Shown here one piece after another: positions 1 to 59,823 of a DNA stretch of 64,000 nucleotides. The notes beneath the pieces were generated by a model, which was not told the origin of the DNA, did no database searches, and saw only the letters and a program-made list of their open reading frames with translations. This DNA comes from a virus, in the UHGV virus genome UHGV-0098755; one strand, 5' to 3'. Both the position numbers and the translations under genes were made by a program. Numbering within the stretch: position 1 is the stretch's first letter; each line of letters opens with the position of its first letter.

Positions 1-2775
1 GATGGCGCAATGGTATTACGTCGTTCACTTGCTATTGGCACAATTACCGCCGACGAAAATACTAACAACTACGGTTCTCCTACTCCAATGGGAGAAAGAT
101 ATATTGCTTTGGGCGATGCTGCCACTGGTTTAAAATACATTAAGCAGGGTGTTTATGATTTAGTAGGTAATTGGAATTCTGTTGCTTCTATTACTCCTGA
201 CAGTTTCCGTAGTACTCGTAAAGGTATATTTGGTCGTTCCGAGGACCAAGGCGCAACTTGGATAATGCCTGGAACCAACGCCGCGCTTTTATCGGTTCAA
301 ACACAAGCTGATAATAACAATGCTGGAGACGGACAAACCCATATCGGGTACAATTCTGGCGGTAAAATGAACCACTATTTCCGTGGTACAGGTCAGATGA
401 ATATCAATACCCAACAAGGTATGGAAATTAACCCGGGTATTTTGAAATTGGTAACTGGCTCTAATAATGTACAGTTTTATGCTGATGGCACTATTTCTTC
501 TATCCAACCTGTTAAATTAGATAACGAATTATTTTTAAATAATTCTAATAATACCGCAGGCCTTAAATTTGGCGCCCCTAGCAAAGTTGATGGCTCGAGA
601 ACTATCCAGTGGAACGCCGGGACCCGCCCGGGTCAGAACAAAAACTATGTGACCATGAAAGCATGGGGTAACGCATTCGACTCCACTGCCGGTAATCGTG
701 AAACCGTATTTGAATTGTATGACGGCCAGGGCTATCATTTTTGTTCTCAACGTTTAGCACCGACGGGTTCTGAAACTGTTGGTGCTCTTCAATTCAGAAT
801 TTCCGGCGCTTTACGTGTGGGTGGTGGTATTATATCGGCTGGTTCTATTGCTACTGAATCAAGTTTAGTTGCTAATAATGGATTGTCTGTAAACGGACAA
901 GCCAAATTTGGCGGAACAGCAAATGCATTGAGAATTTGGAACGCCGAATATGGCGCTATTTTCCGTCGTTCAGAAACAGCATTGCACATTATTCCTACTC
1001 TTAAAGACCAAGGAGAAAATGGCGAAATAGGTAATCTTCGTCCATTGAGCATCGCACTTCATAACGGTATGGTACAAATGCGCCATTCTGTCACGTTAGG
1101 CGATGATGGCAGAGGTGGCAATATGATTACCGTGGACAATGACAGCAAACTTGTCGTGGTAACTTCTAATGCCAGATTAAGCCCTAATTTCCGCATGCAA
1201 ATAGGTCAGTCATCTTATATTGATGCTGAATGTACTGATGCTGTTCGCCCGGCAGGCGCGGGTTCATTTGCTTCTCAGAATAATGAAAATGTCCGTGCGC
1301 CGTTCTATATGAATATTAATCGCACAGATACAAGTACTTACGTTCCTATTTTAAAACAACGCTATGTTCAAGGAAATAGCTGTTATTCTTTAGGTACTTT
1401 AATAAATGGCGGTAACTTCAGAGTTCATTATCATGAAGGTGGTGATAATGGTTCAACTGGTCCTTTAATTAAAGACTTTGGATGGGAATTTACTCGTTCC
1501 GGTGATTTTATATCTCCTAAGCGTGTTTCTGCTGGTGGTTCAGTTTATTTAGGTACGGATGGTAATATCACTGGCGGTTCATTACCTAACTTTGCTAACC
1601 TGAACACAACTTTAGAACGTAGAGTTAAGGTCGGAACTTGGTCCGGTAGTTCAACTGCAGGATGGTATAAATTTGCTACTGTAACTATGCCACAATCAGT
1701 TTCTACCGTCCAATTTAAGATTATAGGTGGTAATGGATATAATGCCAATTCACCAGAACAGGCTACAATTACTGAAGTAGTTCTTCGTACCAGTAATAAC
1801 AATCCTAAAGGTATTAACGCCACTTTATGGGGGCGCACGGGTAATGGATTTACTAATATAGCAACAATTAATACCTCCGGTGATGATTATGACGTTTATC
1901 TGTATGCTGGGACTTATGCAGACAAACTTATAGTTGAATATGACGCCACAGAAAATACCCGTTATATTTCGGTAATTGGACTTAATGGTGGATATCAAAC
2001 ACCAGTAACAGAATTACCCGCTGGTCATCTGCGCGGTCAAGTGTATATGATGTACTCTGATGCTCAGATACCTTATCCGGTCGGTGCTCCGATTCCGTGG
2101 CCGAGTGATTCAGTTCCTGCTGGATTTGCTTTGATGGAAGGTCAGACCTTTGATAAGTCCGCATATCCAAAGTTAGCTGTTGCATATCCTAGCGGTGTTA
2201 TTCCAGATATGCGCGGGCAAACTATCAAGGGTAAACCAAGTGGTCGTGCTGTTTTGAGCGCTGAGGCAGATGGTGTTAAGGCTCATAGCCATAGTGCATC
2301 GGCTTCAAGTACTGACTTAGGTACTAAAACCACATCAAGTTTCGACTATGGTACTAAGACGACAAGTAGTTTCGACTATGGTACTAAGACCAGTAATAAT
2401 ACTGGTGCTCATACGCATAGTTTGAGCGGTTCCACAAACACCGCCGGTGCGCACAGCCACACAAGCGCTCTTTATGCGGGAAGTAACAACTCTCCTGGTA
2501 CTGGTGCTATAAGAGGATCCGCCGGTTCTGGTAATACGCTTGGAACTTCTTCTTCTGGGGCACATTCGCACTCTATATCTGGTACTGCTGCAAGCGCAGG
2601 CGCTCACGCACATACTGTTGGTATTGGTGCTCATACCCATACAGTTGGTATTGGTGCTCACACCCATTCAGTAGCAATTGGTTCACATGGGCATACAATA
2701 ACTGTAAATAGTACAGGTAATACAGAAAACACGGTTAAAAACATTGCTTTTAACTATATCGTTCGTTTAGCATAA
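1..2775 (+). CDS. 37: Long tail fibre distal subunit gp37, C-terminal ~920 aa; 5' end lies outside window
   Basis: Frame open to window edge; Gly/Ser/Thr/Asn-rich fibre sequence; C-terminal His-x-His repeats (GAHTHT, GAHSHS); followed by gp38 and holin as in T4. Confidence 0.85.
2320..2391 (+). repeat. In-frame 30-bp tandem repeat (about 2.4 copies) encoding [10 protein letters not shown] inside gene 37
   Basis: Copies at 2320-2349 and 2350-2379 plus partial third; copies differ at synonymous sites including TCA vs AGT serine codons. Confidence 0.8.
2611..2691 (+). repeat. In-frame 27-bp tandem repeat x3 encoding H-T-V-G-I-G-A-H-T, His-box repeats of fibre tip
   Basis: catactgttggtattggtgctcatacc / catacagttggtattggtgctcacacc / diverged third copy. 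Confidence 0.8.
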
Positions 2776-2802: not shown

Positions 2803-3354
2803 ATGAAAATATATCATTATTATTTTGACACTAAAGAATTTTACAAAGAAGAAAATTACAAACCGGTTAAAGGTCTTGGTCTTCCCGCTCATTCAACAAT
2901 TAAAAAACCTTTAGAACCTAAAGAAGGATACGCAGTTGTATTTGATGAACGTATTCAGGATTGGATTTATGAAGAAGACCATCGCGGTAAACGGGCTTGG
3001 ACTTTTAATAAAGAAGAAATCTTAATAACTGACATAGGAAGCCCGGTTGGTATAACTTTTGATGAACCCGGCGAATTTGATATATGGACTGATGATGGTT
3101 GGAAAGAAGACGAAACATATAAACGCGTTTTAATTCGTAATAGAAAAATTGAAGAATTATATAAAGAATTCCAAGTATTGAATAATATGATCGAAGCTTC
3201 AGTTGCAAATAAAAAGGAAAAATTCTATTATCAAAACCTTAAACGGTTCTTTGCTCTTTTAGAAAAGCATGAGCATCTAGGTGGTGAATTTCCTAAATGG
3301 CCTGAAAAAGAACGGAAGCCTTGGTATAAGCGTTTATTCAGGAATTACGTATAA
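2803..3354 (+). CDS. 38: Tail fibre assembly chaperone gp38 (T4-type, 183 aa)
   Basis: 183-aa ORF directly after gene 37; N-terminus MKIYHYYFDTKEFYKEENYKPVKG as I recall for T4 gp38. Confidence 0.85.
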   Translation: MKIYHYYFDTKEFYKEENYKPVKGLGLPAHSTIKKPLEPKEGYAVVFDERIQDWIYEEDHRGKRAWTFNKEEILITDIGSPVGITFDEPGEFDIWTDDGWKEDETYKRVLIRNRKIEELYKEFQVLNNMIEASVANKKEKFYYQNLKRFFALLEKHEHLGGEFPKWPEKERKPWYKRLFRNYV

Positions 3355-58797: not shown

Positions 58798-59823
58798 CTA
58801 GTTTAGTGCATTTAGTGCATTGTTCAGTTTAGAACGCTGCTTTGTCAGATTTTGAACCCTTGACTGAGCTTGTTCTAACACCTTTTCAGCTTCTAGCACT
58901 TCATTGGTCGCTTTAACGAGTTCATCATCTACTGCCTTAAGAGACTTCTCAATCGCGTCAGCGTGCCATTTTTCAACAGGTTTAAGACTCGGATTTTCAA
59001 TAGGAAGAAAATTCACTTTATTGAATTTCCATGCATCCTTATTACCTGAACTATACATCCAAAATTTAGGATCGTTTGATAAGTAATTGGATAAATTTAA
59101 ATTTAAGTTATCTTGTACTTCTTGCTTTTTCTCTTGTGTAACTTCGTCCTTTCTCAAAAAATCATATTTAAATGAAACGATCATATCAAGTTCATATGTT
59201 GTCGTATCTAACTTAAATCGTTCAAAACGAGGTAAAATCTTAGATTGAACAGCAGAAACAACATCCATATACTTAAATGCTTCTGTCAACTGTGATTTAA
59301 GGCATTCACAAATTGAAAGAGAATTTTTAGTATTAGGCTTAAAGCTAATTCGTGCAGTTCTATTATTTTCTTTTAATGGTCTTACTTCCATTTGAAGAGT
59401 ATAACCATCAAATTTCAGATTCTTTAAGTTAATATCAGAACCTTTTAATCGACTAGCAGTAGACAAAATTTGTTTTAATTGTCTACGGAACAGAGCAATA
59501 AATCTCCATTCAAGACGATAATGATTTGGATTAAAAAATCCTGTTGATAAATCGACCTTACTTTGACCAACGCCTTGAACAAATAGAGGATTTTTATAAT
59601 CAACAGTTTTACAGAAATCGGTGAGCTGCTCACGAGCAGTCATTTGAGTAATATACCCCGCTTTACTAAAATGACGTAACCATTCACTGCTATTCATATA
59701 CTTAAAGTGAATATCACGATTAACTTTATCAGGGTCTAAATTATTTTGGCACAAAAATGTCATAACATCACGAGTATAACTGGCATTACGAACCATATCT
59801 TCAATTTGAGAACGAGTTTTCAT
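58798..59823 (-). CDS. Paralogue-family protein with C-terminal coiled coil (341 aa), nrdC.5
   Basis: N-terminus MKTRSQIEDMV. Confidence 0.55.
   Translation of the reverse strand: MKTRSQIEDMVRNASYTRDVMTFLCQNNLDPDKVNRDIHFKYMNSSEWLRHFSKAGYITQMTAREQLTDFCKTVDYKNPLFVQGVGQSKVDLSTGFFNPNHYRLEWRFIALFRRQLKQILSTASRLKGSDINLKNLKFDGYTLQMEVRPLKENNRTARISFKPNTKNSLSICECLKSQLTEAFKYMDVVSAVQSKILPRFERFKLDTTTYELDMIVSFKYDFLRKDEVTQEKKQEVQDNLNLNLSNYLSNDPKFWMYSSGNKDAWKFNKVNFLPIENPSLKPVEKWHADAIEKSLKAVDDELVKATNEVLEAEKVLEQAQSRVQNLTKQRSKLNNALNALN

Follow-up and report, generated by a model that had tools for sequence, protein, structure and literature searches.

What are two short tandem repeats doing near the 3' end of a phage tail-fibre gene, and does their copy number bear on host range? 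The window analysed here is a stretch of 64,000 nucleotides from the virus genome UHGV-0098755, and all features described below lie on its + strand. The repeats fall within the 3' part of gene 37, the long-tail-fibre distal subunit (1..2775), whose reading frame is already open at base 1, so that the start of the gene lies upstream of the window, and which ends in a stop at 2773-2775. The tip of the encoded protein matched the solved T4 gp37 tip (PDB 2XGF) at a phmmer E-value of 1.3e-91, with query residues 44-291 aligned to chain residues 14-242. The ORF also matched the Pfam families Collar (PF07484) and Phage_fiber (PF03335), as well as the tail fiber family phrog_295 (E 7e-114). Directly downstream is a gp38-type chaperone gene, gene 38 (2803..3354), a T4-type tail-fibre assembly chaperone with 96% identity to T4 gp38 and a match to phrog_105, tail fiber assembly, at E 1.2e-43; this ORF had no Pfam family match, and its identity comes from PHROGs and the direct T4 comparison. 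In T4, gp38 serves as the chaperone for folding the gp37 tip (PMC9603124). The T holin gene follows gene 38, which gives the same 37-38-t gene order as in T4. Taken together, the 2XGF match, gp38 and the T holin bear out the initial assignment of this gene as a T4-type gene 37.

Both repeats were recovered by TRF, which reported a 30-bp period at 2320-2392 (2.4 copies, 86% matches, score 111) and a 27-bp period at 2602-2682 (2.6-3.0 copies, 83-86% matches, scores 100 and 85), each in frame within the gene 37 ORF. Using TRF together with the codons and a DNA alignment to T4, we delimited a 30-bp array at 2320..2409, made up of U1 (2320-2349), U2 (2350-2379) and a degenerate U3 (2380-2409), and a 27-bp array at 2602..2709. 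The latter comprises D1 (AHAHTVGIG, 2602-2628), D2 (AHTHTVGIG, 2629-2655), D3 (AHTHSVAIG, 2656-2682) and a fourth, more diverged unit, D4 (SHGHTITVN, 2683-2709), with one HxH motif in each and a consensus of xHxHTVxIG in 3-4 copies. U1 reads GGT ACT AAA ACC ACA TCA AGT TTC GAC TAT and U2 reads GGT ACT AAG ACG ACA AGT AGT TTC GAC TAT; they encode an identical decapeptide, and the 5 nucleotides in 3 codons at which they differ are all synonymous, TCA versus AGT included. The repeats exceed chance expectation, with no array scoring at least 85 in 200 codon-shuffled versions of gene 37 (maximum 53). No other tandem array anywhere in the 64-kb window scored above 56. TRF and the codons confirm the two in-frame repeats that a sequence-only reading had placed near the 3' end of gene 37. 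Its extent for the 27-bp repeat also holds, given that the third copy does end at 2691 in the HTVGIGAHT register, and the synonymous copy differences that it described, with the TCA/AGT switch, can be seen codon by codon.

Domain limits in the window are the T4 limits of PMC9603124, carried over through the 2XGF alignment. In T4 gp37, the stem comprises residues 882-931 and 960-1009 and the tip residues 932-959 (PMC9603124), and residues 932-959 are those that contact the receptor (PMC6957217). On this basis, the collar ('knob') domain of the window is formed by a first part at 2068..2280 (T4 811-881; Pfam PF07484, E 6.6e-11, ORF residues 692-739) and a second part at 2722-2772 (T4 1010-1026). 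Between them lie the ascending arm of the needle stem at 2281..2460 (ORF residues 758-817; 60 aa versus 50 in T4), the head ('tip') subdomain at 2461..2544, and the descending arm at 2545..2721 (ORF residues 846-904; 59 aa versus 50 in T4). The head, which is predicted to contact the receptor from the 2XGF alignment and head clusters, corresponds to ORF residues 818-845 and T4 932-959; the T4 length is kept and the sequence has diverged. Eight HxH motifs run through the tip with a spacing of 42,14,37,14,9,9,9: the ascending arm has motifs 1-3 (nt 2284, 2410 and 2452) and the descending arm has motifs 4-8 (nt 2563, 2605, 2632, 2659 and 2686). A 14-residue His-box unit with an HxH spacing of 14 is found in the ascending arm at 2407..2448 (PF03335, ORF residues 796-809, 28.4 bits versus a cutoff of 20), and its partner, also with an HxH spacing of 14, in the descending arm at 2560..2601. 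PF03335, 'Phage tail fibre repeat', matches such 14-residue His-box units of the upper stem, and the 10- and 9-residue units are unit types distinct from it; the single PF03335 stretch in the ORF lies outside D1-D4 and overlaps only the degenerate third decapeptide. The ascending arm holds the 30-bp array, whose units are His-free decapeptides, the descending arm holds the 27-bp array, and the head separates the two. The repeats had been thought to lie in the receptor-binding, host-range-determining region; by the limits of PMC9603124 and the contacts of PMC6957217, they instead flank the head and belong to the stem arms.

The comparison with T4 makes the relation between the arrays explicit. 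The T4 gp37 tip is homologous over collar, stem and head, with the same collar, the same C-terminal 29 residues, the same 14-9-9 HxH spacing and the same head length (a 37-residue HxH-to-HxH gap). T4 has two repeat units per arm (n = 2) and seven HxH motifs spaced 32,14,37,14,9,9, whereas the window has n = 3 and eight. The stem arms differ from those of 2XGF only by insertions, of 10 residues in the ascending arm and of 9 in the descending arm. The head sequence is strongly diverged and is flanked at either end by a 3-residue indel. In the DNA, the arm insertions appear as separate 30-nt and 27-nt gaps in T4, about 250 bp apart. The T4 needle holds seven irons by its seven HxH motifs, with six histidines in octahedral arrangement per layer (PMC6957217), and the number of HxH motifs has been suggested to scale with needle length (PMC12609058). 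In the antiparallel T4 arms (i+j about 1891), the equivalent of U1 (895-904) is opposite the H989/H991 unit, and the reported contact between G964 and H929 (PMC6957217) agrees with this register within 2 residues. Judged from the sequence, the two arrays provide corresponding units, one array for each of the antiparallel arms in the iron-stapled needle stem of a T4-type tip.

This matching extends well beyond the window. We searched for gp37/Stf tips, taking the best 120 of 2807 matches at E <= 1e-10, and drew on two protein databases for a comparison of 152 complete tips, all distinct. Across the 152 distinct tips, the first HxH-to-HxH spacing was 12+10n and the number of C-terminal 9-residue HxH steps was n, with n = 1, 2, 3, 4, 5, 6. 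The number of 14-residue steps (m, which was 0, 1 or 2) was equal on the two arms in 151 of the 152, and the exception had lost an HxH motif with its length unchanged. Three apparent exceptions to the co-variation were found, all of them a lost or gained HxH motif with unchanged length. Another 43 or so distinct tips from IMG/VR kept to the 10:9 rule as well, as did 13 phage loci. Among about 200 distinct homologous tips, which are phylogenetically related, have moved as a cassette and represent at least 5 independent coupled changes of n, far fewer than the number of sequences, none had length-mismatched arms. Linkage alone would maintain the coupling of the arms once it had been established. 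The deposited gene 37 of phage N2 has a frameshift in the head, yet both arms have n = 2, which rules it out as an exception to the pairing. The two arrays had initially been taken as independent repeats; with matched n on both arms, they are in fact one coupled structural module.

The reading that we favour, with a probability of roughly 80%, is that the two arrays are the two halves of one module that forms the lower stem of the trimeric gp37 needle. Each chain would run up the stem, form the small receptor-touching head and run back down. In the descending arm, each x-H-x-H-T-V-x-I-G nonapeptide would supply one HxH motif; in T4, one HxH motif from each of three chains coordinates one axial iron ion (PMC6957217). 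Each His-free decapeptide would stand beside one nonapeptide, such that a 10-mer and a 9-mer together make one stem layer. This face-to-face register is suggested by the published domain limits, the one reported contact and the co-variation. The window would accordingly have one layer more than T4 and, from conservation of the motif, 8 predicted metal sites rather than 7, with a stem perhaps 3 nm longer than that of T4 if the ~150-A needle and 50-residue arms are used as a scale. Copy number would change only in matched pairs (30 bp plus 27 bp) because the arms must stay in register. An AF2 monomer of the tip, built from a 20-sequence alignment, was unreliable (pLDDT 46, pTM 0.19), as would be expected of an interwoven, metal-dependent trimer. 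Its low-confidence hairpin paired residues 128-146 with 171-189, the register predicted from T4 (i+j = 1663).

The matched-arm constraint would result in purifying selection on the peptide and drift at synonymous sites, and the age of the copies fits this. Across 13 phages, orthologous copies differed at 3.8-4.7 positions per 30 bp, compared with 6.5 for paralogous copies, and the split between TCN in U1 and AGT in U2 was observed in 10 of the 13, a siphovirus among them. Both results support the earlier view that the repeats are old and selected rather than the product of a recent slip. Short in-frame tandem units, and the two identical 27-bp units of AV122, would be compatible with recent slippage during replication, with a hypervariable contingency repeat or with an artefact of assembly. 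However, the copies are only 83-86% identical, phages sequenced independently since 1990 (TuIb, X55191) carry the same copies and share their distinguishing substitutions, and copy number was constant among the 12 close relatives examined, which leaves such an origin with next to no probability. A hypervariable tandem repeat would have near-identical copies and a varying copy number, and we observed neither.

The same stem architecture, [42,14,head,14,9,9,9], was identical in TuIb (X55191, 1990), F2, AV117, ECO07P2, GiZh, PNJ-9, AV116, TH57, AV122, JK36 and teqhad. F2 and AV117 have 94-95% DNA identity to the window across the tip, and no deposited phage was identical. The head type of the window is common to F2, AV117, ECO07P2, GiZh and PNJ-9, whereas different heads, of 35-56 aa, are found in TuIb, TH57, AV122 and AV116. 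Stf-type side tail fibres of lambdoid and other enterobacterial prophages, Nonagvirus and Felixounavirus carry the same collar-stem-head-stem module and follow the same repeat rule, with n between 1 and 6 and m between 0 and 2, although their N-terminal shafts and virion contexts differ. A Shigella sonnei prophage protein (P0001) was 84% identical, and the siphophage PD328 (Nonagvirus) has nearly the same cassette.

The window itself is a mosaic, 100% T4-like at 2123-2301 (collar) and 95-100% F2-like at 2363-2658 (stem and head), which places a recombination joint inside the 30-bp array. Its U1 also carries the AGT TTC of U2, unlike U1 of other phages. Such observations raise the possibility that the repeats matter mainly as DNA, with the conserved 27-bp His-box and 30-bp units serving as recombination substrates for exchange of the head cassette, or of the entire tip, between phage genomes and the repetition being a by-product. 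The joint within the array, the AGT TTC in U1, the nearly shared Nonagvirus cassette, and the occurrence of the same stem with different heads and of the same head with different stems are all in its favour, and recombination in conserved adhesin motifs has been proposed (Tetart 1996, 1998 as summarised in PMC3157838). Yet it would leave unexplained the conservation of the peptide with diverging synonymous sites, the constant matching of the array numbers and the HxH motif in every 9-mer, which together indicate a constraint at the protein level. We consider this a doubtful account of why the repeats exist; a recombination role is compatible with the stem module as a secondary role, not as a replacement for it. 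Under the stem-module reading, receptor specificity would reside in the head between the arrays, and the head would be exchanged as a cassette through recombination within the stem and collar, where the sequence is conserved.

The sequence-only reading had further suggested that the number of repeats in the tip could modulate receptor specificity; if the effect were direct, variants with different counts would differ in host range. Residues 907-996 of T4 gp37, the 'receptor-recognizing area' of classical genetics (Montag 1990, cited in PMC9659904), do overlap part of both arrays, n varies from 1 to 6 in the wider family, and gene 37 duplications are reported to have broadened the T4 host range to Yersinia (Tetart 1996, cited in PMC7002106). 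However, the repeats are in the stem, and the LPS/OmpC-binding residues found by mutagenesis are in the head at 932-959 (PMC6957217, PMC9603124). Although the 12 relatives were isolated on different hosts and have heads of six lengths (35-56 aa), all had n = 3, so that an identical count regardless of host range, the outcome that would speak against the proposal, is largely what was observed. Phages with n = 3 came alike from K-12, O157, O111 and ESBL strains, E. fergusonii and Citrobacter. Conversely, one head type was found with n = 2, 3 and 5, with both arms changed each time, and AV122 (n = 3) and N2 (n = 2) share a head type; head clustering thus rules out that head type dictates copy number. 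A three-unit ascending array is present in at least 43 phage records, and with the arrangement found in dozens of sequenced relatives, the feature is an ordinary one. Direct control of receptor choice by copy number is therefore improbable.

The T4 mutants of Tetart et al. 1996 (J Mol Biol 258:726), as described in PMC3157838 and PMC7002106, have in-frame C-terminal gene 37 duplications with conserved His-containing motifs. A host-range duplication of that type does not describe the window, which has a single head between the arrays, with n unrelated to head type or isolation host. The duplications in those mutants are said to be laboratory-selected and to include the specificity-determining segment itself. 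In the window, by comparison, natural matched stem units flank the single head and show no host association.

An indirect effect on host range was also evaluated, in which the stem acts as a spacer and extra layers help the head to reach receptors through thicker O-antigen or capsule. Stem length is quantised over a broad range (n = 1-6, m = 0-2), which spans some 15 nm or more if each residue adds about 3 A, a value inferred from the ~150-A needle (PMC3004832) and 50-residue arms (PMC9603124), and a link between needle length and HxH number has been the subject of speculation (PMC12609058). No association with host type was seen, though: n = 3 phages came from rough K-12 as well as O157 and O111 strains, and n = 2 was found in T4 (E. 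coli B), in phages of clinical or farm strains and in a Salmonella phage. One layer is also only ~2% of the 145-nm fibre (PMC9603124). We regard a spacer function as an unlikely explanation for the repeats, and stem length may have a secondary effect on host range.

The fold and the motif are already known, and the arrangement already existed in the 1990 sequence of TuIb. We did not find the 10:9 pairing stated in its strict form in the literature searched, which did not extend to the primary 2XGF structure paper, and it is a small refinement of what is known. The window itself has little import, showing the normal architecture of a well-studied and structurally solved tip. For annotation and engineering, the host-specificity determinant is the ~28-residue head (2461-2544) and not the repeats. 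Because no unmatched arms were found among about 200 natural tips, changes in repeat number should alter both arms together. With the pairing rule, the sequence alone also suffices for a quick reading of stem length and of how many metal sites are predicted. More tentatively, the gp37/Stf needle could be a quantised ruler set by matched 10-mer/9-mer pairs and paired 14-mers, in which stem length might tune reach through O-antigen or capsule apart from the specificity of the head. If true, a change in length would call for a coordinated pair of in-frame indels separated by about 250 bp, and tips of a chosen length could be engineered by an explicit rule.

Tandem Repeats Finder recovered both of the in-frame arrays that had been proposed from the sequence alone: a 30-bp period array at 2320-2392 (2.4 copies, 86% matches, score 111) and a 27-bp period array at 2602-2682 (2.6-3.0 copies, scores 100 and 85). 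They were the only arrays scoring above 56 in the 64-kb window, and when the gene was codon-shuffled 200 times, no array reached a score of 85. A weak tandem repeat of 22-bp period was also observed at 58816-58857 (1.9 copies, 80% matches, score 56). The 30-bp and 27-bp arrays are read in frame in a long ORF, which is already open at base 1 and has its stop at 2773-2775. The two complete 30-bp copies, U1 and U2, encode an identical decapeptide; the five nucleotides at which they differ fall in three codons and are all synonymous changes, among them the serine switch between TCA and AGT, also noted earlier. The degenerate third copy, U3, encodes a further decapeptide. The 27-bp units translate as AHAHTVGIG, AHTHTVGIG, and AHTHSVAIG, with SHGHTITVN as a more diverged fourth.

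The last 248 residues of the ORF match the receptor-binding tip of T4 gp37 (PDB 2XGF, E 1.3e-91), and in Pfam the ORF has hits to the tail collar domain and to the phage tail fibre repeat, a 14-residue unit. Downstream come a gp38 chaperone ORF, 96% identical to that of T4 and matching phrog_105, and then the T holin, in the same order as in T4. The genome is that of a Tequatrovirus, with core genes ~97% identical to those of phages such as N2; none of the deposited phages was identical across the tip, the best being F2 at 95.2%. Ahead of gene 38, a Shine-Dalgarno-like AAGGAG (2774-2779) and the ATG (2803) lie 23 nt apart, with a GGGGC-UUCG-GCCCC hairpin (2781-2794) between them. For the 45 nt around the hairpin (2768-2812), the folding energy is -15.6 kcal/mol, with z = -2.9 relative to shuffled sequences. 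The arrangement at 2774-2805 resembles the classic "split" ribosome-binding site of T4 gene 38 and the C(UUCG)G hairpins originally described in T4 mRNAs.

To place the arrays, the limits of the T4 parts were carried over through the alignment to 2XGF. A review quoting the crystal structure (PMC9603124) gives the knob as 811-881 and 1010-1026, the stem as 882-931 and 960-1009, and the tip as 932-959, with the chain running up the stem, making the tip, and then returning. In the window, the ascending arm is then 2281-2460, the head (the subdomain between the arms, predicted to contact the receptor) 2461-2544, and the descending arm 2545-2721. The 30-bp array falls wholly within the ascending arm and the 27-bp array wholly within the descending arm. 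The T4 residues that bind LPS and OmpC were located in the tip by alanine scanning, and seven iron ions are held in the T4 needle by His-x-His (HxH) motifs (PMC6957217). Each 27-bp unit carries one such motif. The window shares its collar, gp38, and gene order with T4 but has one more decapeptide going up and one more nonapeptide coming down, seen in the DNA as separate 30-nt and 27-nt gaps, and therefore has eight HxH motifs compared to seven. The assignment of the repeats to the gene 37 tip thus held, but not to the part that meets the receptor: they are a structural repeat of the ordinary kind in a known protein, and they lie in its stem and not in the receptor-binding head.

We measured the spacing from each HxH motif to the next in 152 distinct complete tips from two protein collections. 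The first spacing was 12+10n, and the number of 9-residue steps at the C-terminus was n, for n = 1, 2, 3, 4, 5, and 6, while 14-residue steps were equally numerous on both arms (0, 1, or 2). The ascending arm is laid out as an HxH, nine residues, and n decapeptides, and the descending arm as n+1 nonapeptides of xHxHTVxIG type. Three apparent exceptions had lost or gained an HxH with length unchanged. The rule was also kept in 13 phage loci and ~43 further distinct IMG/VR tips, and no length-mismatched arms were seen in any of these sets. Judged from these sequences, the two arrays appear to be one module. The antiparallel register (i+j) is ~1891 from the published limits and 1893 from a reported G964-H929 contact, which would set T4 decapeptide 895-904 opposite the nonapeptide with H989 and H991. 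Read most simply, a decapeptide and a nonapeptide would form one stem layer round one metal site, in the register we infer. An AF2 monomer of the tip was too poor for use (pLDDT 46), and its sole hairpin was in the predicted register. Some homologous tip proteins have unusual stems: P0171 has five paired layers; P0210 has six, and its ascending units are irregular (73 residues in place of 72); and P0205 has an extra HxH (NHDH) within an ascending decapeptide.

The fold, the iron-binding HxH motifs, and the 14-residue Pfam repeat are already established, as is the fact that prophage side tail fibres are homologous to T4 gp37 tips, and a 2025 cryo-EM paper notes that HxH number may scale with needle length (PMC12609058). 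No statement of a strict pairing of His-free decapeptides with HxH nonapeptides for n = 1-6 was found in the literature covered, in which the 2XGF structure figures through citing papers, and we do not claim the rule as novel.

Across 13 phages, orthologous 30-bp copies differed at 3.8-4.7 positions per 30 bp compared to 6.5 for paralogous copies, and the 27-bp copies at 2.7-5.3 compared to 4.9-8.0 per 27 bp. A TCN serine in U1 and AGT in U2 were common to 10 of the 13, including TuIb (a 1990 sequence) and a Nonagvirus siphophage. These results support the earlier view that the repeats are old and selected, with purifying selection acting on their peptide. AV122 (OR352952.1) has 0 differences between its first two 27-bp units, a pair that differs by 3-8 nt in the other phages; recent gene conversion or re-duplication may be the cause.

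Gene 37 is mosaic, being 100% identical to T4 at 2123-2301 and 95-100% identical to F2 at 2363-2658, with the joint of the T4-like collar and F2-like tip inside the 30-bp array. U1 of the window ends AGT TTC, as U2 does, while U1 in the other 12 phages ends AGC/AGT TTT. Together these suggest that the array has undergone recombination or gene conversion. A secondary, DNA-level role of the repeats in cassette exchange is plausible from the joint and the U2-like ending of U1, and fits the published proposal that conserved adhesin motifs mediate such exchange (PMC3157838); it leaves unexplained both the conservation of the peptide and the matched numbers of the two arrays. Escherichia phage vB_EcoM_PD328 (Nonagvirus, Queuovirinae, 59 kb; ON922918.1 1756-2918) carries nearly the same stem-plus-head cassette, with a near-identical head, which indicates that the tip cassette has moved between unrelated phage families. 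The deposited gene 37 of Escherichia phage N2 (ON645936.1 158852-160360), the closest core-genome relative of the window, has an AV122-type head, carries only a misc_feature annotation, and has a frameshift in the head region; a sequencing error or pseudogene formation may account for this.

The sequence-only reading had also held that repeat copy number could modulate receptor specificity, and this was not borne out. All 12 relatives fetched (TuIb, F2, AV117, ECO07P2, GiZh, PNJ-9, AV116, TH57, AV122, JK36, teqhad, and siphophage PD328) have the window's architecture, [42,14,head,14,9,9,9], with n = 3, yet their heads are 35, 37, 38, 48, 55, or 56 residues long and their isolation hosts vary; this comes close to an identical count in all relatives whatever the host range, which that reading had named as evidence against itself. 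Conversely, prophage fibres with one head type have n = 2, 3, or 5, and among T-even phages a head type is common to AV122, where n = 3, and N2, where both arms have n = 2. Copy number therefore does not track the specificity determinant. It is unlikely that stem length serves as a spacer, for which we found no support, as n = 3 phages come from rough K-12 and also from O157, O111, and clinical strains. A 1996 study reportedly described gene 37 duplications extending T4 host range; these are said to include the specificity segment, whereas the window has matched stem units. Three-unit ascending arrays were found in 43 phage-collection records (covering at least 80% of the query), compared to 28 with the T4-type two-unit array, ~21 of which are T4 itself or laboratory derivatives. 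The repeat copy number of the window is thus common to many relatives, and its arrangement is the common natural one.
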